From assembly GCA_945865725.1 (NCBI GenBank), contig CAMBEO010000004.1, positions 2,016 to 66,015 of the forward strand: a stretch of DNA of 64,000 nt. The letters are read 5' to 3'. Source of the stretch: Thermoflexus hugenholtzii JAD2. GTDB lineage: Bacteria; Chloroflexota; UBA11872; UBA12225. Below the pieces are notes generated by a model. It searched no databases. It was not told the DNA's origin and worked only from the letters and a program-made list of their open reading frames with translations. Position 1 is the first letter of the stretch, and each line of letters starts with the position of its first letter. This document shows, one piece after another, positions 29,062-62,363 of the stretch. The translations under genes were made by a program, and so were the position numbers.

Positions 29062-29340
29062 ATGGCCGCCAAGGTCCTCATCCCCACGCCCCTGCGCGCC
29101 CTCACGGGCGGCGCCTCGTCAGTGACGGTCGAGGCCGGCACCGTCGGGACGGTCCTTACCGCCCTCGAGACCGCGCACCCGGGCTTTCACGACCGCCTGT
29201 TCGACGACCGCGGCGACCTGCGCCGCTTCGTCAACATTTATGTGAACGGCGAGGACATCCGCTTCCTCGAGGGTCAGGACACGCCGGTCGCCGCTCGCGA
29301 CGAGGTGAGCATCGTCCCGGCCGTCGCCGGCGGCCGCTAG
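29062..29340 (+). CDS. CysO/MoaD/ThiS-type beta-grasp sulfur-carrier protein (MetO-like), C-terminus ...AVAGGR
   Basis: GGACAGGAG RBS upstream; 92 aa. 'KVLIPTPLRALTGG', 'FVNIYVNGEDIRF' and 'IVPAVAGG' closely parallel M. tuberculosis CysO as I recall it. One Arg follows the Gly-Gly. Confidence 0.8.
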   Translation: MAAKVLIPTPLRALTGGASSVTVEAGTVGTVLTALETAHPGFHDRLFDDRGDLRRFVNIYVNGEDIRFLEGQDTPVAARDEVSIVPAVAGGR

Positions 29341-29394
29341 TCGGACGCGGGGGACGACGCGCGTCGAACGCGTGCCGACCCCGCACCCCCTGAC

Positions 29395-29682
29395 CCAGGA
29401 ACCCGTCCGACATTTCGGCGATTCGGTGGGGAAGGTCGGCGACAAGGACCGAAGACCGGGCTGAGCCATGGTCCGCGGGCATCCTTGCCCGCCCTGCCGC
29501 CGCGGGACGATCGCCAAGGCCACGGTCGCCCGGACGGCTGCCAGATGGTGAGCCGGGAACGGCCTTCGTTGCCCCTCCCCGGCGGGCAGGGATGCCCGCG
29601 GACCTGCACCCCGGGGCGCACGCGCCCCTTAACCCGGGCGTACGCCCTGCGGTGTCCCTGCGATTGTCGGACAGCCTCCTAG
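29395..29682 (-). mobile_element. MITE-like element, copy 2 (reverse orientation, ~288 bp, composite)
   Basis: The left end 'CCAGGAACCCGTCCGACATTTCGGCGATTCGGTGGGGAAGGTCGGCGAC' and the right end 'GTCCCTGCGATTGTCGGACAGCCTCCTAG' align to the reverse complement of copies 1 and 3. The centre carries ~140 extra bp, including an inverted pair of a 24-nt hairpin motif. The terminal CTA (29679-29681) is the stop codon of the larE-like gene. Confidence 0.55.
29470..29604. repeat. inverted pair of 24-nt hairpin motif GGCGGGCA(A/G)GGATGCCCGCGGACC
   Basis: 29470-29493 (GGTCCGCGGGCATCCTTGCCCGCC) is the reverse complement, with one mismatch, of 29581-29604 (GGCGGGCAGGGATGCCCGCGGACC). Each unit is itself a 7-bp hairpin, GCGGGCA-NGGA-TGCCCGC. 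Confidence 0.75.
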
Positions 29683-30587
29683 CCTTGGATGACCGGCAGG
29701 AGGCGCCGCGCCGCGGGGATCGCCGGGATGGCGCCGAGGGCCTCGTTCATGCTGCCGCTTCGGTAGCCCTGCAGGTCGAGGGCGACGTGCTTGAAGCCGA
29801 TGGCCTTCAGGCGCGTGGTGATGGCCAGGTTCAGGCCGTCGGCGAAGAAGCGTGCCAGATCCGCGGCCGGCACCTCGATACGCGCCACGTCGCCGTGATG
29901 GCGCACCCGGACCTGCCGGAACCCCGCCTCGTAGAGGGCCATCTCGGCCTGGTCGATCTGCGCAAGCTTCTCCGCCGTGACGCGTTCGCCGTACGGAATG
30001 CGCGACGAGAGGCAGGCGAAGGCCGGCTTGTCCCACGTTTCGAGGCCGAGGTGGCGCGAGATCGCGCGAATCTCCGGCTTGCCGAGGCCCGCCTCAAGAA
30101 GCGGCGCGCGGGCGCCCATCGCCTTCGCGGCTTGCATCCCCGGGCGGAAGTCGCCGACGTCGTCTAGGTTGGCACCGTATGCGACCGTCGCGAGTTCACG
30201 CGCGGCCGCTAGCGGAAAGATGGTGGTGAACAGTTCCTGCTTGCAGTAGTAGCAGCGGTTGGCAGGATTGCTCGCGTAGTTCTCGTCGGCCAACTCGTGC
30301 GTCTCGACGAGGACAAGCTCGACCCCGATGTCGCGCGCCAGGCGCTTCGCCTGCTGCAACTCGTGGGCGGGGTAACTCTCGGACACTGCGGTGGCGGCGA
30401 CGGCGCGGTCACCCAACTCGTCGACGCAGACCTTGAGGAGGAGGGTGCTGTCGACGCCGGCCGAGAAGGCGACGAGTGTGCTGCCAAGGTCGCGACAGGC
30501 GGCGCGCAGGCGGTCGTAGGCGGCGCGTTCTCCGGCGGTGAGCGCGGGGGCGTCGGCAGGTGCGTCGATGGTCGTCGTCATGATCAT
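29679..30587 (-). CDS. LarE-family (TIGR00268-like) PP-loop ATP pyrophosphatase / sulfur transferase
   Basis: PP-loop 'VAFSAGVDS', 'NRCYYCK' and 'FACLSSRIPYGE'. Start taken at ATG 30587 ('MIMTTTID'); 30581 and 30626 are alternatives and no clear RBS is present. Confidence 0.7.
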   Translation of the reverse strand: MIMTTTIDAPADAPALTAGERAAYDRLRAACRDLGSTLVAFSAGVDSTLLLKVCVDELGDRAVAATAVSESYPAHELQQAKRLARDIGVELVLVETHELADENYASNPANRCYYCKQELFTTIFPLAAARELATVAYGANLDDVGDFRPGMQAAKAMGARAPLLEAGLGKPEIRAISRHLGLETWDKPAFACLSSRIPYGERVTAEKLAQIDQAEMALYEAGFRQVRVRHHGDVARIEVPAADLARFFADGLNLAITTRLKAIGFKHVALDLQGYRSGSMNEALGAIPAIPAARRLLPVIQG

Positions 30588-30734
30588 GGCAATCGTACCC
30601 GCGTGGTTCCGTGGCGGGCCTGCCATCTCGGCCGGCGGGACGTCGGCGATCCCAGTCCCCACCCGCTCCGGAGCGGTGGTTCACCCACCCTTATGGTGCG
30701 CCGTACGGCGATTCGTCCGTCACCCCCCCACCCC

Positions 30735-30758
30735 AGCGGGCAAGGATGCCCGCGGACC
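30735..30758 (+). repeat. third copy of the GCGGGCA-AGGA-TGCCCGC-GGACC hairpin motif
   Basis: AGCGGGCAAGGATGCCCGCGGACC is in the same orientation as 29581-29604. The neighbouring 'GGCGATTCG' also recurs in element copy 2. Confidence 0.7.
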
Positions 30759-30814
30759 AACCCCACCCCGCCTCGGCGCGTCACTGCTACGGTTCCCATC
30801 ACAAGGAGTCTTCC

Positions 30815-32362
30815 GTGCCAGATGCCCGCCACGATGCCCCGCCTGAACTCGATGAGCTGACCCGGCGCCTCGCCACCGTCCATGACTTGCGCGCCGCGAG
30901 CGCCGTCCTCGGGTGGGACCAGATGACCTACCTGCCCCCCAAGGGCGGCGCGGCCCGCGGGCGCCACCTCGCCACCCTTTCGCGCCTCGCTCACGAGCAG
31001 TTCACCGACGACCGCGTCGGCGCCCTCCTCGATGCCCTCCGCCCCTACGCGTCATCATTGCCCGCGGACCATCCCGCCACCGCCCTCGTCCGCGTCGCGC
31101 GCCACGACTGGGAGAAGGCGGTGCGCGTGCCCGGCGCCTTCATGGCCGCCTTTACCGAACACTGTTCCGCTTCGTACCAGGCGTGGGCGACCGCCCGGCC
31201 CGCCAACGACTTCGCGGGCATCGCCCCCGTCCTCGAACGCACCGTCGAGATGAGCCGCGAGTACGCCGCCTTCTTCCCGGCTACAGCACACGTCGCCGAC
31301 GCATTCGTCGACGAGGCCGAACCGGGCTTGGACGTCGCCGCCGTGCAGGCCCTGTTCGCCTCCTTGCGCGCCCGCCTCGTACCCCTGGTGCGCGAAGTCG
31401 TCGCCCGGCCCCGTCCGGACGATTCGTGCCTAACCCGGGGCTACCCCGAGGACGCGCAGTGGCGCTTCGGCGAGATGGTCGCCCGGCGCCTCGGCTACGA
31501 CTTCGACCGCGGCCGGCAGGATCGCGCGCCGCACCCGTTCACCACCAGTTTCTCGCGCGACGACGTGCGCATTACGACTCGCCTCTCGCACGACGACTTG
31601 CGCTTCGGCCTCTTCGCGACGATGCACGAGGCCGGCCACGGCATGTACGAACAAGGAATCGCGCCTGGTCTCGACGGCACCCTCCTCGGCAGTGGCGCCT
31701 CGTCGGGCATCCACGAGAGCCAGTCGCGGCTCTGGGAGAACGTGGTCGGGCGCAGTCGGGGCTTCTGGGAGTGGGGCTATCCGCTCTTGCGCGCCGAGTT
31801 CCCGGATCAGTTGGGCGACGTGACCCTCGATACCTTCCACCGCGCGGTCAACCGCGTCGAACCGTCACTGATCCGCGTCGAGGCGGACGAGTTGACGTAC
31901 AACCTGCACATCATGATGCGCTTCGACTTCGAACTCGCGTTGCTGGACGGGTCGATGCGCGTGGCCGACCTGCCCGAGGCGTGGCGCGCGCGCTTCATCT
32001 CCGACCTCGGCATCGCGCCCCCCGACGACCGCGACGGGTGCCTGCAGGACGTGCACTGGTTCGCCGGGCCGGTCGGGGGCGCCTTCCAGGGCTACACGAT
32101 CGGAAACGTCTTCGCGGCGCAAGCGTACGACCGTGCGATCCGCGACCTGCCGTCCATTCCTTCCGACGTCGCGCAGGGAGAGTTCGCCCCCCTGCTTGGG
32201 TGGATGCACGCGAACCTGCACGCCCTCGGCCGGATGTTCGACGTGAACGAGACGGTCGTGCGCGCGACCGGCGCGCCGCTCTCGATCGAACCGTACGTGG
32301 CGTACCTCGAGCGGAAATTCAGGGGCCTGTACGGGAGCGGATCAGACACCCCTCTCCCGTGA
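30815..32362 (+). CDS. M32 carboxypeptidase (carboxypeptidase Taq family)
   Basis: GTG at 30815 lies 6 nt after AAGGAG. Motifs are 'HEAGHGMYEQG' (HExxH), 'HESQSRLWEN' and 'IRVEADELTYNLHI'. The 515-aa length is typical. Confidence 0.85.
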   Translation: MPDARHDAPPELDELTRRLATVHDLRAASAVLGWDQMTYLPPKGGAARGRHLATLSRLAHEQFTDDRVGALLDALRPYASSLPADHPATALVRVARHDWEKAVRVPGAFMAAFTEHCSASYQAWATARPANDFAGIAPVLERTVEMSREYAAFFPATAHVADAFVDEAEPGLDVAAVQALFASLRARLVPLVREVVARPRPDDSCLTRGYPEDAQWRFGEMVARRLGYDFDRGRQDRAPHPFTTSFSRDDVRITTRLSHDDLRFGLFATMHEAGHGMYEQGIAPGLDGTLLGSGASSGIHESQSRLWENVVGRSRGFWEWGYPLLRAEFPDQLGDVTLDTFHRAVNRVEPSLIRVEADELTYNLHIMMRFDFELALLDGSMRVADLPEAWRARFISDLGIAPPDDRDGCLQDVHWFAGPVGGAFQGYTIGNVFAAQAYDRAIRDLPSIPSDVAQGEFAPLLGWMHANLHALGRMFDVNETVVRATGAPLSIEPYVAYLERKFRGLYGSGSDTPLP

Positions 32363-32455
32363 AACGGGGGAGGGGCAAGGGGTGGGGGTCTCGTCTCCCC
32401 GCGGGCTTCATACCCCCACCCTCAGTCCCTCCCCCGCTGAGGCGGGAGAGGGAAG
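32349..32455. repeat. palindromic repeats at a convergent junction (hairpin over the M32 stop, plus REP-like unit)
   Basis: 32349-32375 is CCCCTCTCCC-GTGAAAC-GGGGGAGGGG and includes the TGA at 32360-32362. 32414-32455 'CCCCCACCCTCAGTCCCTCCCCCGCTGAGGCGGGAGAGGGAAG' matches the units at 14010-14101. Confidence 0.75.
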
Positions 32456-32466
32456 CACAAACTCCC

Positions 32467-32892
32467 CTACCTCGACTCGTCGATGACCAACGGCACCACA
32501 TTCACTTGAGGCGGGACGATGCGGTACGCGTGGAACTCCGGGCCGGTGCCCCCTGGGACGTCCTGGCGCAGGCTGACCATCAGCTGGAGCGCCCCCGGCC
32601 AGAGTTCCGCGAAGCCGATGTCGGTGGCCGACGGGTACGCCACTGACACCGGGTGCGAGTGGTAGAAGCCGACGTCGTGACCTTCACGCTCGACCTCGAC
32701 GACTCGCATCAGGTCGCGCGAGTCGATCTCGAAGCGGTTGCGCGGCGTCGCGGCGGCGTTCCGCGTCGGCATGACCCGCACGACCTCACCCTCGCGCACC
32801 GCCACCACGCCGCACACCTCGTCGGGCGCGCCGGCGCGGGCGTGGGCCACGATCGCATCGATCTGCGACCGGGCGATCGACACGGTCTCCAT
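32467..32892 (-). CDS. JAMM/Mov34 (Mec+-like) metalloprotease
   Basis: 141 aa. The Glu in 'DEVCGVV' and the JAMM motif 'HSHPVSVAYPSATD' are present. Confidence 0.85.
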   Translation of the reverse strand: METVSIARSQIDAIVAHARAGAPDEVCGVVAVREGEVVRVMPTRNAAATPRNRFEIDSRDLMRVVEVEREGHDVGFYHSHPVSVAYPSATDIGFAELWPGALQLMVSLRQDVPGGTGPEFHAYRIVPPQVNVVPLVIDESR

Positions 32893-32940
32893 TGATAGCC
32901 GGGGTGCCCGCCGCGGTCAGACGGCGGGCACCATCTCCAC

Positions 32941-34056
32941 TTAGTGGACCGCGACGCGGTCGCGCTGATCGGCGAGTTCGGCCGGGATCGGTGCGCCGCA
33001 GAACTCGTGATAGTCGATTAGTTCGGTAATCGTCGGGTGGTCGCCACAGACCGGGCACCCCTTGTCGCGCCGCAACTTCAGGGTGCGGAACTCCATCGAT
33101 AGGGCGTCGAAGAGGAGAAGGCGCCCGACCAACGGATCGCCGATGCCCAAGATCTGCTTGATCGTCTCGAGGGCCTGCATCGACCCGACGATGCCCGGCA
33201 ACACGCCAAGCACGCCGGCCTCGGCACAACTCGGCACCGCACCGGGCGGCGGGGGCGCCGGGTAGAGGCAGCGGTAGCACCCGTGGCCCGGCTTGTAGAC
33301 CGTCACTTGCCCTTCGAACTGGTTGATGCCTCCGTCGATCAGGGTCTTGCCTAGAAGCACGGCGGCGTCGTTCGCCAGGTAGCGCGCGGGGAAGTTATCC
33401 ACGCCGTTGAGAACGTAGTCGTACTCGCGGAACAACTCGAACGCATTGCTCGAGTCGAGGATGGCGTTGTGCGCTTCGACCTTGACGTTCGGGTTGAGCA
33501 TCCCGATCGTCTGCTTGGCGCTCTCGACCTTGAGGTCGCCAACGCGGTCGGTGAAGTGCAACACCTGGCGTTGGAGGTTGGAATGGTCGACGACGTCGAA
33601 GTCGATGAGGCCAAGCGTACCGACCCCCGCCGCCGCGAGGTACAGGCCGGCAGGCGAACCAAGGCCCCCGGCGCCGATCAGGAGGACGCGGGCGTTCTTC
33701 AGCTTTCGCTGGCCGGACGGGCCGACGTCCTGCAGGAGGAAGTGGCGGCTGTAGCGCTTCACCTCCTCTATCGTGAACGCGCTGCCCCCGGCGACGGCCG
33801 GGATGATGCTGACGTCGTCGCCACCCTTCAGGGCGGTCGCCTCGCCGTCAAGCGCGGAGATCTCCTCGCTGTTGACGTACACGTTGATGAACTGGTGCAG
33901 CACGCCTTGCTCGTCGCGCAGGCGGTCGCGCATGCCGGGGAACCGCGCCTCGAGGTCCCCGAGGAGGCCCTTCACGTCGCCCGCCTCCGTCTCGACCCGC
34001 GACTGCCCGCCAGTCAAGGCACGGAAGGGTGTCGGGATATACACCTTTACGCTCAT
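32941..34056 (-). CDS. CysO-type sulfur carrier fused to MoeB/ThiF-type E1 adenylyltransferase
   Basis: aa 1-91 are 'MSVKVYIPTPFRALTGGQ...FINVYVNSEEI...IIPAVAGG', and the sequence then runs directly into 'SAFTIEEVKRYSRHFLL...LLIGAGGLGSP', 'CYRC' and 'CPVCG'. The Gly-Gly junction codon 91 is 33784-33786. There is no rhodanese domain; only ~280 aa follow the junction. Confidence 0.85.
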   Translation of the reverse strand: MSVKVYIPTPFRALTGGQSRVETEAGDVKGLLGDLEARFPGMRDRLRDEQGVLHQFINVYVNSEEISALDGEATALKGGDDVSIIPAVAGGSAFTIEEVKRYSRHFLLQDVGPSGQRKLKNARVLLIGAGGLGSPAGLYLAAAGVGTLGLIDFDVVDHSNLQRQVLHFTDRVGDLKVESAKQTIGMLNPNVKVEAHNAILDSSNAFELFREYDYVLNGVDNFPARYLANDAAVLLGKTLIDGGINQFEGQVTVYKPGHGCYRCLYPAPPPPGAVPSCAEAGVLGVLPGIVGSMQALETIKQILGIGDPLVGRLLLFDALSMEFRTLKLRRDKGCPVCGDHPTITELIDYHEFCGAPIPAELADQRDRVAVH

Positions 34057-34130
34057 CGTTCGTCACTCCTCCGGCCGGGACGCGCCCGCACCGCCAGTGC
34101 TCGCCCGTCCAGGGCAAGCGCCGCTCGTTC

Positions 34131-35078
34131 TCAGGGGAACTGCACGCTCAAGTACCGCTCGCCGGTGTCGCACAGGATCGTGACGACGGTCGCTTCCGGC
34201 GGCATCGTGGCCGCGAGGGCGACGGCGGCGTGAACGTTCGCGCCGGAACTCACGCCGACGAGGAGGCCTTCCTCGCGCGCCAGGCGTCCGGCCATCAACA
34301 ATGCGGCTTCGTCGGTGACCGCCACGACCTCGTCGACGACGTCCCGGTCGAAGATGCCGGGAACGAAGCTCGCGCCGATGCCCTGGATGGCGTGGGGCCG
34401 GAAGCGGCCGCCGGCAAGCACGGGCGATCGTGCGGGCTCGACGGCGACGATGCGTACCGCGGCGCCGAGGGCCTCGCGAAGCGCGTGACCCACCCCGGTG
34501 ACCGTCCCCCCGGTTCCAACGCCGGCCACGAAGGCATCCACCTTGCCCCCGGTGTCGGCAAGGATTTCCGGGCCGGTCGTCTGGCGGTGGATCTCCGGGT
34601 TCGCGGGATTGTCGAACTGAAGGGGCATGAAGGCGCCAAGCTCGCGGGAAAGTTCCTGGGCAAGCCACACGGCGCCGCCCATGCCCTCGATCGCCGGGGT
34701 GAGGCGGACCTCGGCTCCGAGGCGCTCGAGGAGGCGCCGGCGCTCGACGCTCATGTCCTCGGGCATGGTGAGGATGAGCGCGTAGCCCCGGATGGCACAG
34801 ACCACGGCGAGGCCGACGCCCGTGTTGCCGCTCGTCGGTTCGACGATGGTGGCGCCAGGGCCGATCACGCCGCGTCGCTCGGCGTCATCGACCATGGCCA
34901 GGGCGATGCGATCCTTGACGCTTCCGCCGGGGTTTCGGGCCTCGAACTTGCCGAGGACCGTCGCCCCTCCGGCAGTGACGACGCGGTTGAGGCGCACGAG
35001 CGGCGTGCGCCCGATCAAGTCAAGGGCCGACAGCGCGACCGGACGCGGTGCGGGTGCCTGCCTCGGTGTCGATCCCAT
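34131..35078 (-). CDS. cysteine synthase (CysK/CysM family, PLP-dependent)
   Basis: 'LIGRTPLVRLNRV', PLP lysine 'NPGGSVKDRIAL' and 'EPTSGNTGVGLA'. The context suggests CysM-like use of a carrier thiocarboxylate. Confidence 0.85.
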   Translation of the reverse strand: MGSTPRQAPAPRPVALSALDLIGRTPLVRLNRVVTAGGATVLGKFEARNPGGSVKDRIALAMVDDAERRGVIGPGATIVEPTSGNTGVGLAVVCAIRGYALILTMPEDMSVERRRLLERLGAEVRLTPAIEGMGGAVWLAQELSRELGAFMPLQFDNPANPEIHRQTTGPEILADTGGKVDAFVAGVGTGGTVTGVGHALREALGAAVRIVAVEPARSPVLAGGRFRPHAIQGIGASFVPGIFDRDVVDEVVAVTDEAALLMAGRLAREEGLLVGVSSGANVHAAVALAATMPPEATVVTILCDTGERYLSVQFP

Positions 35079-35088
35079 CCCGCACGTC

Positions 35089-35550
35089 CTAGATGTAGTA
35101 CCGCGCCGGCGCGGTCAGGTCTCGCTGGCGCGCGAGGAGGTCGGCCACGGTCGTCGCGTCGAGGATGCGGTGCACGGCCGCGCGCACTTCCTCCCACACT
35201 TCCTGTTGCACCCGGACCGCGGGAGCAACCGCGGCCCCGTCGATGGGCGCGCCTGCCCGCCCGCGCCCGTCAGGGACCGGGGGAAGGAAGGCGTCTCCCT
35301 CGACCGCCTCGATGATCGCACGCATGGTCACCCGTTCCGGTGGGCGGGCGAGGACGTGCCCTCCGCGCGGCCCGCGGGTGCTGTTCACGATCCCCGCGCG
35401 CCGCAGGAGGGTCAAGACCTGGTCAAGGAAGGTGTCCGAAATGCCTTGGCGGCGCGCGATTGCCTCGCTCGGCACCGGACCCTGCCCGATGCGTTCCGCG
35501 AGGTCAATGATCGCGCGGACCCCGTAGTCCGACCGTGCCGAGAGACGCAT
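35089..35550 (-). CDS. Rrf2 family transcriptional regulator
   Basis: 'MRLSARSDYGVRAIIDLA' and the wHTH 'SEAIARRQGISDTFLDQVLTLLRRAGIV'. It ends 10 nt upstream of the cysteine synthase start. Confidence 0.85.
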   Translation of the reverse strand: MRLSARSDYGVRAIIDLAERIGQGPVPSEAIARRQGISDTFLDQVLTLLRRAGIVNSTRGPRGGHVLARPPERVTMRAIIEAVEGDAFLPPVPDGRGRAGAPIDGAAVAPAVRVQQEVWEEVRAAVHRILDATTVADLLARQRDLTAPARYYI

Positions 35551-35778
35551 CGTTTATCGATGAAGTGACGTTCCCGCAAGCGTAACACGCGGGGGTGGGG
35601 CGGCCCCGTCGGCACGGCGGTGCCATGCGGGTAGGCGCCAGTCACCAGTGAACGCGCCGTCGCCCGGCCACATCCCGGTTCGGCCCGCGGCGAGGCACGG
35701 ACGAGGTCGCCATGGGCGACAATCGGCGCGGGCTGGCCACCGTGCCTTGCCACGCCGGGTCGCGAGGGAGGGGCAGCG

Positions 35779-37323
35779 ATGGGGGTCATCGACGCGGACG
35801 CCTGGATCGGCGTCGACATCGGCACGACGGGCACGCGGGCGGTCGTCTTCGACCGTTCGGGGCGCGTGCTCGAGGCTGTCTCGCGCACGTACCCGTTGCT
35901 CGTGCCGCGCCCAGGGTGGGCGGCGCAGGCGCCCGCGACGGTTCACGACGCGACGACCGAGGCCCTTGCCGAGGCCGCCGGATGGGCGCGCGACCACGGG
36001 CGGCACGTGCGCGCCGTCGGGCTGTCGGCCATCCTGCACTCCGTCCTGCCGGTCGATGCGCAGGGGAACGCCCTCGACGACGCGCTGATCTGGGCCGACA
36101 CGCGCGGTGACGACGAGGCGAAGGCGATCCGCGCGTCGCACGACCCGCATCGCCTCTACCTTCGCACCGGCGGGCCGGTGCACCCGATGTACTTGCCAGC
36201 CAAGGTGCGGTGGTGGCGGGCGAACCGGCCACAGACCTTCGCACGCGCCGCGCTCTTCGCTGGCATCAAGGACTACGTCCTCGGCAGGTGGACTGGCGCC
36301 GCCGTGACCGACCGGTCGACGGCGAGTGGTACCGGGCTCTTCGACCTGCAGGCCTTCGACTGGGCCGACGACCTCCTCGCCATCGCGGGGATCGACCGCG
36401 GACGCGTGCCATCGCTCGTGGAGCCGACGGACGTCCTTGACGCGCCTCGCTCGTGGCTGCGGTCCGTCGGCCTGCCGGATGACTGCCTTCTTGTCGCCGG
36501 GGCGGGCGACGGCGTGTTGCAGACCCTCGGCACGGGCGTGGCCTCGCCCGGGCAGTTCGTGGCGATGGTCGCGACGAGTGGCGCGGTACGGTCGGTCGTC
36601 GACCATCCCGTGACGGACGGGGCGCAGGCGCGCACGTGGTGCTACTACCTTGCGGAGGGGCGGTGGGTCGCCGGCGCGGCGATCAACAATGCCGGGATCG
36701 TCCTCGCCTGGTTGCGAGACCAGTGGGCGGCCATCGCGCGGGCGACCGGCGGGCGAGAACCGACGCTTGACGAGGTGACCGCATGGGCCGCCGAGGTCGG
36801 TCCAGGCGCGGGCGGGCTGCTCTTCCTGCCGTACCTCGCGGGTGAGCGGGCGCCCGGATGGAACGCCCGCGCGCGCGGCACGATCGTCGGCCTCTCGCTG
36901 GCGCACGACCATCGCCACCTTGCCCGTGCGACGCTCGAAGGCGTGGGCTACCGGATGCGGACCATCCTCGAACCGATGGAGGAGGTCGCGGGGAACGCGA
37001 ACGAGATCCGCATCGCGGGCGGGTTCATCCGGTCGCCGCTGTGGATGCAGGTGGTCGCCTCGGTCCTCGGGCGCGACCTGACCCTTGTCGACAGCCCCGA
37101 GGCGTCATCGCTCGGCGCGGCGATCCTGGCGATGCGTGCAACCGGTGACATCGAGTCGCTTGAGGCGGCGCCGCGCGTCGGGGCCATCGGGACCGTGACC
37201 CCCGACCCCCGGGCGCGCGCGGCCTACGACGACCTATACGCGCAGTACCGGGCGATCCACGCCGCGATGGCGCCGCATTGGGATGCCATCAGCGCCTGGC
37301 AGGCGGCCCGGGCGGAAGGATGA
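35779..37323 (+). CDS. FGGY family carbohydrate kinase (gluconokinase/xylulokinase-like)
   Basis: GGGAGGGG RBS upstream. 'WIGVDIGTTGTRAVVFD', 'IWADTR' and 'GGFIRSPLWMQ' are present. Confidence 0.85.
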   Translation: MGVIDADAWIGVDIGTTGTRAVVFDRSGRVLEAVSRTYPLLVPRPGWAAQAPATVHDATTEALAEAAGWARDHGRHVRAVGLSAILHSVLPVDAQGNALDDALIWADTRGDDEAKAIRASHDPHRLYLRTGGPVHPMYLPAKVRWWRANRPQTFARAALFAGIKDYVLGRWTGAAVTDRSTASGTGLFDLQAFDWADDLLAIAGIDRGRVPSLVEPTDVLDAPRSWLRSVGLPDDCLLVAGAGDGVLQTLGTGVASPGQFVAMVATSGAVRSVVDHPVTDGAQARTWCYYLAEGRWVAGAAINNAGIVLAWLRDQWAAIARATGGREPTLDEVTAWAAEVGPGAGGLLFLPYLAGERAPGWNARARGTIVGLSLAHDHRHLARATLEGVGYRMRTILEPMEEVAGNANEIRIAGGFIRSPLWMQVVASVLGRDLTLVDSPEASSLGAAILAMRATGDIESLEAAPRVGAIGTVTPDPRARAAYDDLYAQYRAIHAAMAPHWDAISAWQAARAEG

Positions 37324-37359
37324 GGCCAGGCACTCGCCGGCGCACTACCGGTGGTGCGG

Positions 37360-50436: not shown

Positions 50437-50449
50437 CGCAAGTCTCCCC

Positions 50450-55088: not shown

Positions 55089-55105
55089 CGCCCAGGAGGC
55101 GGCTC

Positions 55106-56014
55106 GTGCTCGACGCTCGTTCACCGCTCCTGCCCGCCGCCTCGGCAGTCCTCTGCGCGGTCTTCGCAGTCGTCCTTGGCAGCCAGTGGTGGGGCCGACG
55201 TCGCCCCCACCAGCTGGCGTGGGCGATCGGCATGGCGTGGTACGGCCTCGCCGCGGGCGCGGACGCCGTCGGACAGGTCTGGGGTTGGACCGACGGGACC
55301 TACCGGACGTGGTACCTGTCGGGCGCGCTGATGGCGGCGGCGTGGCTTGGCCTCGGCGAGGTCTACCTCCTGCGCGCGACCGGGCACGGCGAGGTTGCCG
55401 CCGCGGGCATCTTCCTCGGAAGCGTGCCCGCGGTCGTCCGGGCCGGGCGCCTCCTCGCTGCCGGTGAAGCGACCGGCATGCAATCCGCCCTCGTCGTCGC
55501 CGCCATCGGCATCGGCGTCGCGATCTCCCTGGCCTTCATCACGTGGGAGTGGCCCGCGATCTCCGGCCACGCGACCGCGGCGGCACTCGTGGCATCGACG
55601 GCGTTCGTAGCCTGGAAGGTTTGGGTAGCACCCCTCGACCTGTCGGGAATGCTGGACCCGGTCACCGGCGTCCCCCACGGCGCCGCGATGCCGGATGCCG
55701 TGCGCATCCTCTCCCCGATCTTCAATATCGGGGGGGCGCTCATGCTCGTGTTCGGCGCCGTCCATTCGGCACGCGCGTACCTGCGGGAACGTCGCGACGT
55801 GGAGCGGTTCGCAAGCAACGTGCTGATCGCGCTCGGGGCGATTGCACCGACCATCGCCGGGGTGCTCAACCGCTGGGGGATCACCACCGGCTTCTATGCC
55901 GGGGAGTTCCTTGGCGTGCTGTTGATCTTCGCCGGCTTCCTGGCAAGTCGCGAGTCGATCGCGCGCCATGGACGGCCGATCTTTGCGGTCCTAGCCGGTC
56001 GCTGGTCGCCATGA
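55106..56014 (+). CDS. multi-pass membrane protein of unknown function
   Basis: GTG at 55106 lies 6 nt after AGGAGG and 17 nt after the ATPase stop. About 8-9 hydrophobic helices with no recognisable motif. Confidence 0.55.
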   Translation: MLDARSPLLPAASAVLCAVFAVVLGSQWWGRRRPHQLAWAIGMAWYGLAAGADAVGQVWGWTDGTYRTWYLSGALMAAAWLGLGEVYLLRATGHGEVAAAGIFLGSVPAVVRAGRLLAAGEATGMQSALVVAAIGIGVAISLAFITWEWPAISGHATAAALVASTAFVAWKVWVAPLDLSGMLDPVTGVPHGAAMPDAVRILSPIFNIGGALMLVFGAVHSARAYLRERRDVERFASNVLIALGAIAPTIAGVLNRWGITTGFYAGEFLGVLLIFAGFLASRESIARHGRPIFAVLAGRWSP

Positions 56015-56056
56015 CGAAAAACGCCCCGACCGGATGGCCGGGGCGCCTACGAACGC

Positions 56057-56132
<76 letters not shown>

Positions 56133-56225
56133 TCGGTGAACCAACCATAGCACGCCGGACAACTGCGCGTCCAGTCCTGAACCGCAAGGAAGCGGGACGG
56201 ATGTCCGGCGTGCCACCATTGCGCG

Positions 56226-56930
56226 ATGGTCACGCTTCCGTACTCGTGGCAGGAGTGCCGCCTCTGTGGCGGCGCCTACCTGCTTTGGGCAGACCCCGCG
56301 GCCCACCTGGACTCCGACGAGACCGGCATCGGCGAACGCTGGACCGAGTGGGTCCACCTGGACGGGCGCCAGTACGACCAGGACGACAGTGCCGCTTGCA
56401 ACACGTGCGACGCCCTGGACCTCGAGTCGATGGCGTCGCCGCAGCGACGATGGGGGCTCTCGTTGCCCGGGGCGACGTTGGCGGTCATGCGCCGGAAGGG
56501 CCTTCCCATCCCCGCGGCGCCGATCCGTGCGGGGCATGCGCCCGTGCTCTTCGGGACCGCCCCCGCGGCAACGCTGGCGGGACCGGGCGCCGACGCTCGA
56601 CCGGTCCCGGCGATGCCGTTCCTTGCGCCGGCTCCAGTTCAGGATCCGGCGTTCCCCTCGCCAGTCGCCGCGCCCGCACCGACGCCGGAATCCTTGCCCG
56701 GCGACAGGCGCCGGTCGCGCGGGCCGTCGTCGTCCCGCGCCATCCCGTTCCTCGCCTCGCTTACGCGCTCGATCTCGGCCGCGCCTCGCGTGACGGTCGA
56801 GACCTACGCGCCGCGCGACCCGCTCGAACTCCGCGACCCGCTCGTGTGGCTCGTGACGGGGATCGCCGCCGTCACCCTCGTGGCCGTTGTCGTCGGCTGG
56901 TTCACGAGTCCCGGCAACGTCCCGCAGTAG
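56226..56930 (+). CDS. hypothetical Cys4 / Pro-rich protein with C-terminal TM anchor
   Basis: This is the best-looking of three overlapping frames. It has 'CRLCGG...CNTCD', an acidic/Trp-containing N-domain, a Pro/Ala linker and the TM 'LVWLVTGIAAVTLVAVVVGWF'. No family recognised. Confidence 0.4.
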   Translation: MVTLPYSWQECRLCGGAYLLWADPAAHLDSDETGIGERWTEWVHLDGRQYDQDDSAACNTCDALDLESMASPQRRWGLSLPGATLAVMRRKGLPIPAAPIRAGHAPVLFGTAPAATLAGPGADARPVPAMPFLAPAPVQDPAFPSPVAAPAPTPESLPGDRRRSRGPSSSRAIPFLASLTRSISAAPRVTVETYAPRDPLELRDPLVWLVTGIAAVTLVAVVVGWFTSPGNVPQ

Positions 56931-56951
56931 CCACGGCCCGCCGCGACGCGG

Positions 56952-57818
56952 CTAGCGCAGACCGAGGATGGTCGCGATGTTCGCCCTTGCCGGATCGATG
57001 ACGGGGCGCAAGTGGCCCGTCCGGCTCGTCATCAGCGTCGTCAGGCCCGGCCCATGGCCGGCGATCATGCAGTCCGAGTGCGCGACAACCCCGACGACCA
57101 TCGCCCCGCGCCGGTAGCCCCGGCCGAACGAGTGGTCCTGGTCACGAACCGCGACGAGGTCGCCGAGGCGCAGGTTCGTCAGGCCATGCGCCTCGAGGGC
57201 CTCGCGGTCGTGGGTCTGGATGTCGTAGTCGCCGCGTTCCGGGCTTGACCCGACGCCGGACCCCATCAGTTCCGGGGGGACGATCCCGGCGACCGGAACT
57301 TCGAGCGTGCCATCGGCCGACACCTCAGCGGGCAACGCCTTGAGCAACTGGACCGAGGTGTTCAGGAGCTTGACGTTGGGTGCGTCATGGAGGGCGAGCC
57401 CGCGACCGAAAGCGCGGACCTGTATGCGATCGCCGATTGCCAGCTTCTCGAGGACGTCGGGCGGGAAGTCGACCATCATGTGCTCGGCGCCGCCGTGCTT
57501 GCCGGTCACCGTTCCGACCGAACCCTTGCCGTCGCCACTCACGACGTGCGCCTCGTTGCCGATGCACCCGAGGGTGGCGAGGGCGCTGTTCTCGTCGGCG
57601 TCCTTGTTGCGGATCGTCACGCCCGGCTCGACATGGTCGCAGGCCCATCCGAGGGCGCGGTCGCCGACCCGCACGTTGTAGGTGATCCCGCCGGGACCCG
57701 GCAGGGTCACCGCCCGCCCGTCGTGCGTGACGAGGTAGGGCGAGAAGGGGCGCCGGGGCGAGGCGATCTCGCCGATGACGGAGACCCGGACGATGTCGTC
57801 GTAGTTGGCGTGAAGCAT
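56952..57818 (-). CDS. conserved hypothetical protein (DUF4438-like)
   Basis: 288 aa with non-biased composition. The 'MLHANYDDIVRVSVIGEI' N-terminus resembles DUF4438 proteins from memory. No catalytic motif recognised. Confidence 0.55.
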   Translation of the reverse strand: MLHANYDDIVRVSVIGEIASPRRPFSPYLVTHDGRAVTLPGPGGITYNVRVGDRALGWACDHVEPGVTIRNKDADENSALATLGCIGNEAHVVSGDGKGSVGTVTGKHGGAEHMMVDFPPDVLEKLAIGDRIQVRAFGRGLALHDAPNVKLLNTSVQLLKALPAEVSADGTLEVPVAGIVPPELMGSGVGSSPERGDYDIQTHDREALEAHGLTNLRLGDLVAVRDQDHSFGRGYRRGAMVVGVVAHSDCMIAGHGPGLTTLMTSRTGHLRPVIDPARANIATILGLR

Positions 57819-58076
57819 CTAGATGGCTCCTGCGCGGACGCGTTGCGCGGCGCGTGACCGCAAGGGGCAGCGTAGCGCCGCCGGGGTTCGCCCGCAGGTA
57901 CCATGCGGGGAGCGCCGTTGGCGTGGTCGGCCTCCCTGAGGGGGCGCCGGGCGACGGCACGGGGTGCAGGAAAGTCCCGCGTTGGCGCGCCCTTGGTCCG
58001 TGACCCGAATGACGGGACTCGCGGGCCGGACGCGCTTCAGGTCGACACCACGGTGTCGGAAGGGTGAGCGGAACGG

Positions 58077-59000
58077 ATGGACGACTTCGAGTACGTGCGC
58101 CCCGGGTCCGTCGGCGAGGCCGTGGCGCTCCTGGCGGAGAAGCCCGGGCGCGCGCGCGCGATGGCCGGTGGCACCGACCTTCTTGTCCAGTTGAAGGTGG
58201 GGCGCCGCACGCTTGACCGCGTCGTGGACGTAAAGGGCATCGCCGAACTCAACGAGATCCACGTCGGGAGTGACGGGGGCATCACGATCGGCGCCGCCGT
58301 GCCGTGCCACCGCGTGTACGACCACCCGGCGATCGTGGCCGGGTTCCCCGGGATCGTCGACTCGGCGAGCATCGTCGGGGGCATCGCGATCCAGGGGCGC
58401 GCCACCCTTGGTGGCAACCTCTGCAACGGCGCGCCGTCGGGCGACTCGATCCCCTCGCTGGCCGTCGTCGGGGCGGTCGCGGTGATCGCTGGGCCTTCGG
58501 GTCGGCGCGAGTTCCCGGTATCCGAGTTCTGCACGGGGCCGGGCCAGACGGTCCTAGGCGCGGACGAGCTCCTCGTCGCGATCCGCCTTCCGGCACCGCC
58601 TCCCCGGAGCTTCGGCCACTACCTTCGCTTCATCCCCCGCAACGAGATGGACATCGCCGTCGCCGGCGCAGGCGCGTGGGTTGCCCTCGACGAGGCCGGG
58701 GTGGTCACCGCGGCGCGCGTCGTCCTCGCTTCGGTCGCGCCCACGCCGATCGAGGTGCCGGACGCGGCGACGGCGATCATTGGCACGCGCGGCGAGGCCA
58801 CCGCCCTCGAGGCCGCGAGCGAGGCGGCGAAGGCCGCGGCGCGCCCGATCACCGACATGCGGGGCACGCAGGCGCAGCGACGCCACCTGTCAGGCGTGCT
58901 CACGAAGCGCGCCCTCGCCGGCGCGATTGCCCGGGCACGGGGCGAACACGTTCCCGGGGCCCACGAAGCCCACCGCGTGCACGCAAGCGCCACCCACTGA
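58077..59000 (+). CDS. molybdenum hydroxylase FAD-binding (medium) subunit
   Basis: 'FEYVRPGSVGEAVALL...AMAGGTDLLVQLK' is a CO dehydrogenase flavoprotein-like FAD-binding domain. Confidence 0.85.
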   Translation: MDDFEYVRPGSVGEAVALLAEKPGRARAMAGGTDLLVQLKVGRRTLDRVVDVKGIAELNEIHVGSDGGITIGAAVPCHRVYDHPAIVAGFPGIVDSASIVGGIAIQGRATLGGNLCNGAPSGDSIPSLAVVGAVAVIAGPSGRREFPVSEFCTGPGQTVLGADELLVAIRLPAPPPRSFGHYLRFIPRNEMDIAVAGAGAWVALDEAGVVTAARVVLASVAPTPIEVPDAATAIIGTRGEATALEAASEAAKAAARPITDMRGTQAQRRHLSGVLTKRALAGAIARARGEHVPGAHEAHRVHASATH

Positions 59001-59076
59001 CCGCATCACCCGTCTCCCCGACGCAGGCGCATCGCCGCGGCGGGGAACACACCACCAACTGAGGGAGGCAACCACG

Positions 59077-59580
59077 ATGGTTGCGGTGGATGCCAGGACG
59101 GCGACGAAGGTCGTCGTTCAGGCCACGATCAATGGCGAGCCGGTGCAGTTCCTCGCGGAGCCGCGCCAGACCCTGCTCGAGTGCCTGCGCGACGTGCTGA
59201 GCCTGACTGGGACGAAGGAAGGGTGCGCCGACGGCAACTGCGGCGCGTGCAACGTCGTCATGGACGGGCGGCTGGTCAACTCCTGCCTCGTCCTCGGCGT
59301 CGAGGCCGCCGGGGCAAGCATCACGACCATCGAGGGGATTGCCCCGGTGGGAGGCCTGCACCCGCTGCAGACGGCCTTCCTCGAGCAGGCCGCCTTGCAG
59401 TGCGGCATCTGCACGCCGGGCTTCATCGTCTCCGCCTCGGAGCTGCTCAAGCGCAACGCGCGACCGACCGAGGACGAGATCCGCTTCTGGCTTGCTGGCA
59501 ACCTGTGCCGCTGCACGGGCTACGACAAGATCGTCCGCGCCGTCTTGCAGGCGGCGGAGATGATCCACCCGGCCGCCTGA
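59077..59580 (+). CDS. molybdenum hydroxylase (2Fe-2S)-binding small subunit
   Basis: GAGGGAGG RBS upstream. 'GCADGNCGACNV...NSC' and 'QCGICTPGF...CRCTGY' are the two [2Fe-2S] motifs. Confidence 0.9.
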   Translation: MVAVDARTATKVVVQATINGEPVQFLAEPRQTLLECLRDVLSLTGTKEGCADGNCGACNVVMDGRLVNSCLVLGVEAAGASITTIEGIAPVGGLHPLQTAFLEQAALQCGICTPGFIVSASELLKRNARPTEDEIRFWLAGNLCRCTGYDKIVRAVLQAAEMIHPAA

Positions 59581-59659
59581 CGGGCCGTGACGCGCCGACC
59601 GCCAACCCGGCAGGTGCCTCCCATCTGCCGCAAGCGCCCCGCGAAGGATTGGGAGCGAC

Positions 59660-61993
59660 ATGACGACGACCGCAGACCGCCCCGCCACCAGTAGCCCGAC
59701 GCGCGTCATCTCGATCAATGACGGCGCGAACATCATCGTCTCGCATGGAGACTACGCCGTCATCGGGACGCGCCCGGTGCGCCACGACGGCGTGGACAAG
59801 GTCACGGGGCGCGCCGTGTATGGCGGCGACACGCGCCTCAACGGCCTCCTCTTCGGCAAGGTGCTCCGTAGCCCGCATGTCCATGCGCGCATCGTGAGCA
59901 TCGACACGTCGAAGGCCCGCGCGGTGCCCGGCGTGCACGCCATCGTGACGAACGCCGACCTGCCCACGGCCGAGGACCGCGAGGTCAACCTCGGCGAGGG
60001 CGGGGGCAACCTCAAGTACATGAGCGACAACGTCCTCGCGAGCGACCTGGTCCTCTACAAGGGGCATGCCATCGCCGCCGTGGCCGCGATCAACGTGCAC
60101 GTGGCGGAAGCCGCCTGCGCGCTGATCGAGGTCGAGTACGAGGTCCTCCCCGCGGTCCACGAGATCAAGGCCGCGATCGCGGAGGGGGCGCCGCTGGTCC
60201 ACCCGTCGCTCACCACGAAGTCGCTCGGCAAGGACACCGGCGTCCACTCCAACATCACGAACCACGCGCGCCTGCAGATCGGTGACCCCGACGCCGCGTT
60301 TGCCCGTGCCGACGTCATCGCCGAGGGCGAGTTCACGACGACGATGGTCCATCAGGGATACATCGAGCCGACCAACGCCACCGCCATGTGGTATGCGGAC
60401 GGCAAGGTCACGATCTGGACGTCGACCCAGGGATCGTTCGCGGCGCGGGACAGCACCGCGCAGATCCTCGGCCTGCCGGTCTCCCGCGTGAAGGCCGTCC
60501 CGCAGGAGATTGGCGGGGGCTTCGGGGGCAAGATCAACGTCTACCTCGAGCCGGTCGCGGCCCTCCTCTCGCGCGCGAGCGGACGGCCCGTCAAGCTCAT
60601 CATGACCCGGGCCGAGGTCTTCCAGGCCACCGGCCCCGCGCCAGGGTCGTACAGCAAGGTCAAGTTCGGCGCGACGAAGGACGGTCGCCTCGTCGCGGCC
60701 TCCGCCGAGATTTACATGGAATCGGGCGCGTACCCGGGATCAGACACCGGCGCGGCGATGCGTTGTCTGTACTCTCCGTACAAGATCGACGACATGCGCG
60801 TCGACGGCTACGACGTCCTGACGAACCGGCCGAAGACCGCGCCGTACCGCGCGCCCGGCGCGCCACAGGCGGCGTTCGCCTCGGAACAGGTGATCGACGA
60901 CCTCGCCCGGAAGCTCGGGATGGACCCGGTCGAGTTCCGCTTGCTGAACGCCGCGCACGAAGGCACGCGCCTCGTGAATGGCCCCCTCCACAAGAAGGTG
61001 GGCGGCATCGAGGTCCTCGAGCAGACGAAGGCGCACGCGCACTACCAGTCGGACCTTGGCACGCCGTCCCCCGGCACCAAGCGCGGGCGGGGCGTCGCGA
61101 TCGGCTACTGGTTCAACATCGGCCTCCCCTCGAGCGTCGCCATCAGCGTGAACGCTGACGGTTCGGTGACCCTGGTCGAAGGTTCGACCGACATCGGCGG
61201 TAGCCGGGCGTCGATCGCGATGCAGGCGGCCGAGATCCTTGGCGTCCGCGCCGAGGACGTCCGCCCGAGCGTCGTCGATACCGACTCCATCGGCTACACG
61301 GGCGTGACCGGCGGTAGCCGCACGACCTACGCGACCGGTCTCGCCGCGATCGAGGCGGCGCGCCACGTCATCGCCCAGATGACGGCCCGCGTGGCGAAGG
61401 TCTGGTCGGTCTCGCCCGATGAGGTGTCGCACGACCACGGCGCCTTCCGCGCCGGAACGCGGTCGATGTCCTTCAAGGACGCCGCCGGCCACCTCGACGA
61501 GACGGGCGGACCGATCACGGGGACCGCAAGCCTCGACCCGCAAGGGCACGGGGGCGCGTTCGCCACCGTCACCTGCGACGTCGAAATCGACGTGGAGACC
61601 GGCAAGACGCAAGTCCTGAAGTGGACGATCGTCCAGGACGCTGGCAAGGCGATCCACCCGAGCTACGTCGAGGGGCAGTTCCAGGGCGCCAGCGCGCAGG
61701 GGATCGGGTGGGCGTTGTCCGAGGAGTACTTCATGAACTCCAAGGGCGAGATGACCAACACGTCCCTCCTCGACTACCGCCTACCGACGGCCTTCGACGT
61801 GCCGATGATCAACACCGTCATCGTCGAGGTGCCGAACCCCGGCCACCCGTTCGGCGTGCGGGGGGTCGGCGAGGCGTCGATCGTCCCGCCGATGGCCGCG
61901 GTGGCGAACGCGATCCGTGACGCGATCGGCGTCCGGATGCATGCATTGCCGATGAACCCGGGCGCGATCCTCCACGCTCTCGGCACCATCTAG
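59660..61993 (+). CDS. molybdopterin-binding large subunit of xanthine dehydrogenase / aldehyde oxidoreductase family
   Basis: 777 aa. 'VDKVTGRAVYGGD', 'APYRAPGAPQ' and 'GVRGVGEASIVP' are present. The loop is not the CODH-type AYRCSFR/AYRGAGR. Confidence 0.9.
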   Translation: MTTTADRPATSSPTRVISINDGANIIVSHGDYAVIGTRPVRHDGVDKVTGRAVYGGDTRLNGLLFGKVLRSPHVHARIVSIDTSKARAVPGVHAIVTNADLPTAEDREVNLGEGGGNLKYMSDNVLASDLVLYKGHAIAAVAAINVHVAEAACALIEVEYEVLPAVHEIKAAIAEGAPLVHPSLTTKSLGKDTGVHSNITNHARLQIGDPDAAFARADVIAEGEFTTTMVHQGYIEPTNATAMWYADGKVTIWTSTQGSFAARDSTAQILGLPVSRVKAVPQEIGGGFGGKINVYLEPVAALLSRASGRPVKLIMTRAEVFQATGPAPGSYSKVKFGATKDGRLVAASAEIYMESGAYPGSDTGAAMRCLYSPYKIDDMRVDGYDVLTNRPKTAPYRAPGAPQAAFASEQVIDDLARKLGMDPVEFRLLNAAHEGTRLVNGPLHKKVGGIEVLEQTKAHAHYQSDLGTPSPGTKRGRGVAIGYWFNIGLPSSVAISVNADGSVTLVEGSTDIGGSRASIAMQAAEILGVRAEDVRPSVVDTDSIGYTGVTGGSRTTYATGLAAIEAARHVIAQMTARVAKVWSVSPDEVSHDHGAFRAGTRSMSFKDAAGHLDETGGPITGTASLDPQGHGGAFATVTCDVEIDVETGKTQVLKWTIVQDAGKAIHPSYVEGQFQGASAQGIGWALSEEYFMNSKGEMTNTSLLDYRLPTAFDVPMINTVIVEVPNPGHPFGVRGVGEASIVPPMAAVANAIRDAIGVRMHALPMNPGAILHALGTI

Positions 61994-62072
61994 TCGGGCC
62001 TGTCGGGACCCGCACCCCACTCCCGCGCAAGCGGTGGAGGGGTGCGGGATGCCCGCGCCCCGTGCAACTCCC

Positions 62073-62363
62073 ATGGCCACCGTCTTCATTCCGCCCGCGT
62101 TGCGGGACCTCACGAGCGGCGCCACGACCGTCTTGATCGACGCGCCGACAGTTCGCGCCCTCGTGGAGGAACTCGACCGGAAGTATCCCGGCGTGCGCGA
62201 CCGCTTGTGCGAGGGGGCGTACTTCCGTCCCGGCCAGACCGTTGCCGTCGATGACGTCGCGTTCACTAACCGGGTCGCCATGTACCAGGAGGTCGGGCCC
62301 GACTCCGAGGTGCATTTCATCGCGGCGATCGCTGGTGGGGCGGCCGGCGCCTCCCGTCACTGA
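62073..62363 (+). CDS. CysO/MoaD/ThiS-type beta-grasp protein, Gly-Gly followed by 7-aa tail (..AIAGGAAGASRH)
   Basis: 'MATVFIPPALRDLTSGATTV...' is paralogous to the two other carriers, and 'HFIAAIAGG' corresponds to their 'IVPAVAGG'. Alternative starts are ATG 62049 (6 nt after GGTGGAGGGG) and GTG 62034. Confidence 0.65.
   Translation: MATVFIPPALRDLTSGATTVLIDAPTVRALVEELDRKYPGVRDRLCEGAYFRPGQTVAVDDVAFTNRVAMYQEVGPDSEVHFIAAIAGGAAGASRH

Follow-up and report, generated by a model that had tools for sequence, protein, structure and literature searches.

The DNA analysed here, hereafter the window, is a 64,000-nucleotide stretch (positions 2,016 to 66,015 of contig CAMBEO010000004.1, our contig C4) of the Thermoflexus hugenholtzii JAD2 assembly GCA_945865725.1, a 2.3-Mb metagenome-assembled genome (MAG) in 106 contigs that is 85% complete and whose close relatives are freshwater Chloroflexota MAGs. 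The GC content is 71%. Within the window lie three genes for small sulfur-carrier-like proteins of the CysO type, which have a ThiS/MoaD (beta-grasp) fold and a Gly-Gly (GG) motif at the end of the domain. Carrier 1 follows a ThrC-like gene, carrier 2 is the N-terminal domain of an E1 adenylyltransferase encoded in an operon with a JAMM metalloprotease, and carrier 3 sits directly after the FAD (flavin), 2Fe-2S and molybdenum subunits of a CoxMSL-type molybdenum hydroxylase (Mo-hydroxylase). All three have residues after GG. Assignments (Table 1) were made with Pfam, NCBIfam and Rfam profiles, BLASTP, comparison with the chains of solved structures and an AlphaFold2 (AF2) model.

Table 1. Features of the window, in order of position, with the match on which each assignment is based (aa, amino acids; PLP, pyridoxal phosphate; SAM, S-adenosylmethionine)
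Feature	Position	Strand	Match or score
SAM-I riboswitch aptamer	27434..27568	+	Rfam RF00162, 62.7 bits (gathering 44.4), E 3.5e-12, full model
ThrC-like PLP enzyme, candidate MetM-type homocysteine synthase	27662..29017	+	Pfam PALP 1.1e-70; NCBIfam threonine synthase models
Carrier 1, CysO/MetO-like beta-grasp, 92 aa, AVAGG-R	29062..29340	+	Pfam ThiS 5.9e-17
LarE-family PP-loop sulfur transferase	29679..30662	-	NCBIfam TIGR00268, 325 bits
M32 (Taq-type) carboxypeptidase, possible alternative trimmer	30746..32362 (start uncertain)	+	Pfam Peptidase_M32 8.2e-160
JAMM/MPN+ metalloprotease	32467..32892	-	Pfam Prok-JAB 1.4e-18
MoeB/ThiF-type E1 adenylyltransferase	32941..33783	-	Pfam ThiF 5.6e-78; best NCBIfam MoeB/MoeZ
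Carrier 2, CysO-like beta-grasp, aa 1-91 ending AVAGG, in frame with E1	33784..34056	-	Pfam ThiS 2.7e-12
CysK-type cysteine synthase, upstream in operon	34131..35078	-	NCBIfam cysK 407 bits (cut-off 351)
Rrf2-family (CymR/IscR-like) regulator, first gene of operon	35089..35550	-	Pfam Rrf2 2.2e-32
tRNA gene	56061-56132	-	RF00005, 67.2 bits
DUF4438 protein, divergent, just upstream of Mo-hydroxylase operon	56952-57818	-	
FAD subunit, CoxMSL-type Mo-hydroxylase	58077..59000	+	Pfam FAD_binding_5 3.9e-42, CO_deh_flav_C 1.1e-19
2Fe-2S subunit, Mo-hydroxylase	59077..59580	+	Pfam Fer2_2 2.7e-30, Fer2 1.8e-6
Molybdopterin-binding large subunit (CoxL/XdhB-like)	59660..61993	+	Pfam MoCoBD_1, MoCoBD_2, Ald_Xan_dh_C
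Carrier 3, CysO-like, AIAGG-AAGASRH	62049..62363 (62073 start also possible)	+	BLASTP vs carrier 1 8e-11
Aldo/keto reductase downstream of carrier 3	62404..63399	+	Pfam Aldo_ket_red 4.2e-62

All detectable carriers are blocked, and searches show a single JAMM protease and a single strong E1

An earlier note on this DNA had named the three open reading frames as paralogous carriers with a shared IP(T/P)xLR start. All three frames lie where it had placed them and translate as it had described, and codon-position GC backs the frames as called (0.86-0.93 at third positions, 0.44-0.51 at second positions). The paralogy also holds: BLASTP joins carrier 1 to carrier 2 at 6e-34, with 55% identity, and to carrier 3 at 8e-11. 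Carrier 3 taken alone falls below the cut-off of the Pfam ThiS profile (0.0026), and the profile of its own family matches the CysO chains 4n6e_B (1.3e-15) and 3dwg_C (3.3e-12). The shared start does not extend to carrier 2, which reads IPTPFR instead of IPxxLR. At the other end, carrier 1 finishes as AVAGG-R, carrier 2 passes from AVAGG into the E1 as AVAGG-SAFT, and carrier 3 finishes as AIAGG-AAGASRH.

The three blocked carriers that the earlier note had counted are indeed there in the window; for the genome as a whole the count is four. The fourth is a MoaD-MoaE fusion of 224 aa on contig C1 at ~14.8-15.5 kb (L002 1480-2151), in which a ThiS domain (residues 9-84, Pfam 1.9e-14) and a MoaE domain (94-204) are joined through PPVSGG|SDPARL, and the PPVSGG|S junction is kept in two genomes of the same genus. 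Every detectable ThiS/MoaD-type carrier of the genome has a blocked C-terminus. All four keep GG, which does not vary in the family alignments either, and a free C-terminal glycine carboxylate is absent from the primary translation product of each. Because it is the terminal glycine whose carboxylate an E1 adenylates (PMC5925218, PMC4326299), none of the four could be activated as translated, and all four would need cleavage after GG before adenylation, as the earlier note had argued for its three.

Genome-wide profile searches returned one Prok-JAB gene, encoding the JAMM protein of Table 1, and one strong ThiF-type E1 in the whole MAG, so that the sole JAMM and sole E1 first seen in the window hold for the genome. 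The zinc motif of the JAMM protein, read from the translation, is complete (E25...H78-S-H80-x7-S88-x2-D91). Because the MAG is incomplete, we widened the census to 26 genomes of its class, among them several closed ones. One strong ThiF-type E1 was found in 25/26 and a Prok-JAB gene above the Pfam cut-off in 24/26, mostly beside the E1, with 4-7 ThiS-family matches per genome; the pattern of this MAG is thus that of 24-25 of the 26. Judging from sequence, the single JAMM and the single E1 would have to serve all carriers. The genes of carriers 1 and 2 lie within 4 kb of the JAMM gene, and that of the MoaD-MoaE fusion is on another contig.

The short tails are not conserved

Among the blocks, conservation is limited to the two fusions and does not extend to the short tails. 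For carrier 1, the best 120 homologues divide into 61 that end at GG and 59 with tails of 1-16 aa, which have no residue preference. Even within the genus the single-residue tail differs, being R here and C and A in two other genomes, and a carrier 1-like metagenomic protein (92% identical) ends in Y. The tail codons in the genus are CGC, TGC and GCC, each followed by TAG, and sister genera with the same operon read GG-TAG. For carrier 3, orthologues from the same genus and family have a stop after GG in 5/5 cases, as do the nearest metagenomic homologues, with the order of CoxL-like gene, carrier and aldo/keto reductase kept. The AAGASRH tail corresponds to read-through into what is intergenic sequence in these relatives: the gene ends GGT GGG GCG GCC GGC GCC TCC CGT CAC TGA, with no in-frame stop after GG.

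Since the carrier 3 tail is confined to this genome, with orthologues that stop at GG, it might be an artefact, and the tails in general might be mis-called stops or errors of assembly or sequencing; the earlier note would have taken GG-stop orthologues as a sign of mis-called stops. Such orthologues exist, and that inference from them fails: the tails are real sense codons, with no stop to be missed in the carrier 3 DNA. The identical 104-aa protein, tail included, is found on six database contigs, and one-residue carrier 1 tails recur in independent assemblies of the genus. We regard an artefact as extremely improbable.

The same comparisons bear on regulation. The earlier note had proposed that proteolytic unmasking is a common control point; in its full form, the tails and fusions would be pro-sequences, and the single JAMM a selected master switch for the methionine, cysteine, molybdenum cofactor and Mo-hydroxylase branches. 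The setting invites this, with all four carriers of the genome blocked, one JAMM, and the gene for that JAMM in an operon headed by an Rrf2-family regulator. Residual uncleaved MoaX, moreover, made its authors suggest slow or regulated cleavage (PMC4326299), the proteases DRJAMM and HvJAMM1 have been tied to regulation of molybdopterin (MPT) synthase (PMC8832034), and in the carrier 3 family at large tails are frequent and conserved within genera. However, because near relatives already differ in the short tails of carriers 1 and 3, a selected control point is left unsupported. Free GG ends are found in several relatives that share the operon and in half of the carrier 1 family, and for both carriers there are orthologues with a stop directly after GG. 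Two of the branches, in addition, already have regulators of their own, the SAM riboswitch and Rrf2. On balance, we find regulated unmasking improbable.

Carrier 2 is part of a widespread Ubl-E1 fusion

The fusion of ubiquitin-like (Ubl) carrier 2 with the E1 (32941-34056, 371 aa) has a ThiS domain at residues 5-91, the junction AVAGG|SAFT and a ThiF domain at 102-336. Pfam found only ThiS and ThiF in the 371-aa protein, with no rhodanese domain; standalone rhodaneses are present elsewhere in the genome. The JAMM gene follows 48 nt downstream. The gene order Rrf2-CysK-UblE1-JAMM is kept across this Chloroflexota lineage, and its Rrf2-CysK-UblE1 part also occurs in NC10. The regulator scores 97.5 bits against the NCBIfam CymR model, which is below the cut-off of that model.

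Fusions of this kind were seen in at least six phyla (Chloroflexota, NC10/Methylomirabilota, Acidobacteriota, Armatimonadota, Eisenbacteria, Clostridia and others). The GG at the junction is invariant in all that were examined; the linker after it varies from ~1 to 30 aa and leads to FTxEExxRYSRH, the conserved beginning of the E1. Some versions have a rhodanese domain at the C-terminus as well; such triple fusions were seen in Clostridia, Eisenbacteria, Blastocatellia and one further lineage (L059, L060, L065, L076). At locus L044, the open frame runs on into a sulfur-transport (YeeE-like) domain, which may be a further fusion or a missed stop. An AF2 model built from 20 fusion sequences has a mean predicted local distance difference test (pLDDT) score of 83.5 and two confident domains, and confidence is lowest at residues 88-92, the AVAGG|S junction (pLDDT <50). 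In the model, this low-confidence junction is consistent with an exposed, cleavable linker. To our knowledge, no CysO-type Ubl-E1 fusion has been characterised so far, and the literature that we searched mentions the widespread carrier-E1 fusion only in a general way.

The earlier note had suggested a cysteine branch, and a cysteine synthase gene does adjoin carrier 2; this synthase scores as CysK-type. Its nearest solved structures are CysK/OASS-A enzymes, with M. tuberculosis CysM absent from the first 60. Because both cysteine-synthase homologues of the genome are CysK-like and not like M. tuberculosis CysM, the cysteine assignment comes down to gene order.

The second CysK homologue, on contig C67 at ~6.5-7.5 kb, is 49% identical to the cluster copy and is closest to bacterial beta-cyanoalanine synthases (6pmu, 1.8e-79). 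We also considered the cluster synthase as a CysM-type user of thiocarboxylate; this gained no clear support, the two homologues being closest to structures of CysK and beta-cyanoalanine synthase.

Carrier 1 and the methionine branch

The SAM-I riboswitch lies upstream of the ThrC-like gene and carrier 1, which are 44 nt apart. A second ThrC homologue (35% identity) is encoded on contig C10, apart from the ThrC-like gene of the cluster. The riboswitch and this separate homologue strengthen the assignment of carrier 1 to methionine made in the earlier note: by analogy, a ThrC-like enzyme and a carrier behind a SAM-I riboswitch would match a homocysteine route of the MetO/MetM type. A ThrC-like gene beside a carrier is also found in NC10 and Nitrospinota loci.

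Profile scores raise the question of whether the carriers might act mainly as SAMP/TtuB-like modifiers of lysines, attached through the E1 and removed by the JAMM as a deconjugase, with the Mo-hydroxylase or its maturation factors as the target of carrier 3. Carrier 1 exceeds the NCBIfam SAMP1 cut-off (66.4 bits against 60), the best NCBIfam match of the JAMM protein is desampylase, and the E1 also matches the UbaA model. Linkage of SAMP1 to MoaE regulates MPT synthase, and in Thermus TtuB is both sulfur carrier and modifier, the JAMM affecting its conjugates (PMC3980101). However, the desampylase and UbaA scores are both well below their cut-offs (87.6 against 130 and 317 against 450), and the gene contexts are metabolic: a ThrC-like gene with a SAM riboswitch, CysK, and MoaE. 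The closest solved relatives are CysO sulfur carriers (for carrier 1, M. tuberculosis CysO 3dwg_C, 2e-20), and no target can be inferred. We therefore assign a low probability to protein conjugation as the main role.

Between carrier 1 and the JAMM gene lies the LarE-family gene, whose position is kept in relatives L019-L027. By analogy with TtuA, its product could perhaps take sulfur from a carrier thiocarboxylate. The protein has CYYC and ACLSS cysteines, and in Prochlorococcus (locus L091) a homologue is encoded near an E1.

Carrier 3 belongs to a family linked to Mo-hydroxylases

Carrier 3 is the least explained part of the system. Its likelier start is the ATG at 62049, preceded at a distance of 7 nt by a GGAGGGG ribosome-binding site. 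It belongs to a distinct subfamily with a MATVF start and a PDSEVHF..AI.GG end. The large subunit encoded before it has no close characterised enzyme, the best solved chain being the alpha subunit of 4-hydroxybenzoyl-CoA reductase (8.5e-88). Synteny with the aldo/keto reductase is confined to near relatives (L011-L014, L099-L103).

The link to the hydroxylase reaches much further. We searched 401 Chloroflexota genomes with the carrier 3 profile and took the 40 best loci, this limit being set because lower-scoring matches of the profile include carrier 1-type proteins; a CoxL-like gene adjoins the carrier in 36 of these 40. Outside Chloroflexota, all independent contexts examined show the family member a few bases behind a CoxL-like gene. 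One Chloroflexota family has the carrier between two CoxL-like paralogues (L134, L135, L137, L141, L143, L145, L147, L151 and related loci), and these sandwiched carriers have tails of 20-28 residues after GG that are conserved within genera, e.g., ..HNWSGQHHVRPDAGIARA. A Prok-JAB gene is present in 39/39 genomes with a member of the carrier 3 family, which fits a dependence on JAMM but would be expected in any case, nearly all genomes of the class having a JAMM gene.

We found no description of a CysO-like carrier paired with a Mo-hydroxylase in the literature searched, and the census of Ubl gene neighbourhoods by Iyer et al. 2006 (PMC1779556) makes no mention of xanthine dehydrogenase. Carrier 3 as a replacement of the XdhC chaperone received no support, XdhC_CoxI genes being present in 18/18 genomes checked, this one included. 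Sulfur supply is the guess that attracts us most, although as a whole proposal we consider it unlikely: the family might be dedicated to a single clade of Mo-hydroxylases from the xanthine-oxidase family, and its thiocarboxylate might deliver sulfur, in a way that depends in this lineage on the single JAMM, to the cofactor of the enzyme (e.g., as the terminal Mo=S ligand, or in repair) or to the product of the enzyme.

Probable model: a constitutive JAMM with nearly cost-free tails

The reading that we favor, and consider probable, is that the JAMM protease is a constitutive part of these pathways, that residues after GG are consequently almost free of cost, that the short tails drift, and that the fusions serve co-production. 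Several protein-thiocarboxylate routes of sulfur transfer would then run from one common pair for activation and processing. In each of the four proteins the JAMM would cleave the peptide bond that follows GG, the E1 would adenylate the glycine carboxylate thus freed, and a thiocarboxylate would be formed with sulfur that probably comes from a cysteine desulfurase or a standalone rhodanese. The thiocarboxylate of carrier 1 would enter homocysteine synthesis of the MetO/MetM type, that of carrier 2 probably cysteine synthesis or general sulfur assimilation, and that of MoaD molybdopterin; carrier 3 would serve an unassigned step tied to the Mo-hydroxylase.

The low cost of the tails would follow from the chemistry. 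In CysO/MetO pathways, the same type of JAMM has to hydrolyse an adduct of carrier, GG and amino acid in each catalytic cycle; in work dating from 2005, Burns et al. reportedly found that Mec+ frees cysteine from the CysO-GG-Cys amide at every turnover. Because an encoded GG-X tail is chemically the same substrate as such an adduct, residues after GG should be cheap. The R and AAGASRH tails would be drift, gained and lost, and the two fusions would probably secure 1:1 co-production of carrier and partner enzyme.

Several points weigh against this scheme. The MAG, being 85% complete, leaves room for a second E1 or JAMM in this genome, and carrier 3 sits 27 kb from the JAMM gene. An E1 that has no rhodanese domain makes the sulfur donor uncertain, and with a CysK-type synthase as neighbour, not one of the M. 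tuberculosis CysM type, so is a role of carrier 2 in making cysteine. Among 40 members of the carrier 3 family, 31 have 2-34 residues after GG, some of them conserved within genera; because tails are the majority here and are partly conserved, pure drift is perhaps an incomplete account of this family. All the biochemical steps, furthermore, are ones that we infer from homology and gene context.

The M32 carboxypeptidase is a last such point and the basis of another explanation. Its gene lies inside the cluster, in a position shared only by the nearest relatives (L019-L024), including the genus with the one-residue tail. The M32 enzyme could remove R or AAGASRH residue by residue, leaving to the JAMM only the fusions and the catalytic adducts. 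However, a sister genus has the M32 gene and yet a free GG on carrier 1, and the more distant L025 has a GG-A tail without M32 in the cluster. An exopeptidase would have nothing to halt it at GG, and the processing of such tails by a JAMM has precedent (PMC5925218). Carboxypeptidase trimming seems to us quite improbable.

Relation to known systems

The system is close to CysO-CysM-Mec+-MoeZ of M. tuberculosis, with which it shares a CysO-type carrier, a JAMM and a cysteine synthase encoded in one operon, and an E1 that would activate GG. Here, in contrast, carrier and E1 form one protein, which is without the rhodanese domain of MoeZ, the synthase is CysK-type, and an Rrf2 regulator replaces the actinobacterial arrangement. 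Operons of ThiS/MoaD, JAB, E1 and cysteine synthase genes, one of them in Chloroflexus, were catalogued by Iyer et al. 2006 (PMC1779556). For the methionine branch, the GapMind 2026 list gives MetO, MetM, Mec and MoeZ as steps of the Streptomyces route, which thus relies on Mec as hydrolase and MoeZ as ligase (PMC13759103). The likeness to Streptomyces MetO-MetM is one of gene context: a ThrC-like PLP enzyme gene is followed by that of a small carrier, and the hydrolase and E1 are not dedicated to the branch. The present locus differs in having a SAM-I riboswitch in addition, in the one-residue tail of carrier 1, and in its phylum.

HcyS-Ala and HcyD of Wolinella are a tailed carrier with its JAMM. 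In other such pairs, QbsD trims QbsE-CF, and CxnF has been proposed to act on CxnE, which has 10 aa after GG (PMC5925218). Residues after GG and a JAMM gene nearby are shared with QbsE/QbsD and CxnE/CxnF, here by carriers 1 and 2. Unlike those single dedicated pairs of secondary-metabolite or methionine clusters, one JAMM here faces four blocked substrates, with short tails that differ from species to species.

For the fusions, too, there are counterparts. The activity of MoaX of M. tuberculosis demands cleavage at Gly82|Ser83 (PMC4326299), DRJAMM cleaves the natural MoaD-MoaE fusion of Deinococcus, and HvJAMM1 cleaves linear fusions (PMC8832034). Like MoaX and DR2607 of Deinococcus radiodurans, the MoaD-MoaE protein of this genome has a GG|S junction, as far as it can be read from sequence; unlike in those cases, the logic of fusion extends to Ubl-E1 as well.

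One E1 for several carriers is likewise known, TtuC being the single E1 for TtuB, MoaD and ThiS in Thermus thermophilus (PMC3980101). As with TtuC and with UbaA of Haloferax, a single E1 would here serve carriers for different products, with a JAMM homologue in the system; the carriers of TtuC and UbaA differ in having free GG ends and in forming protein conjugates. Finally, MoaD genes have been found strictly beside the gene of tungsten aldehyde:ferredoxin oxidoreductase (AOR) (Iyer et al. 2006, PMC1779556). The AOR-linked MoaD and carrier 3 are alike as GG proteins of the ThiS/MoaD fold tied by gene order to one pterin enzyme, and unlike in that carrier 3 is CysO-like and its partner is a Mo-hydroxylase of the xanthine-oxidase family.

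Biological meaning

Taken as a whole, the system is a variant of known protein-thiocarboxylate pathways, of which two parts are under-described: the CysO-type Ubl-E1 fusion and the carrier family linked to Mo-hydroxylases. That family suggests that the biology of these enzymes includes a step absent from the literature searched, and, were its dedication to the hydroxylases and its dependence on the JAMM true, one protease would gate every protein-thiocarboxylate route in the cell. With four substrates in a 2.3-Mb genome, namely a one-residue tail, a seven-residue tail and two enzyme fusions, the organism offers a compact natural test of the promiscuity of a JAMM and a single E1. The findings also suggest an evolutionary rule: where a JAMM hydrolase is needed in every cycle for the release of cysteine or homocysteine, residues after GG cost little and accumulate. 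Such a rule would account for about half of the CysO-like proteins in databases looking 'blocked', and annotators should accordingly be cautious and not readily take such tails for regulation.

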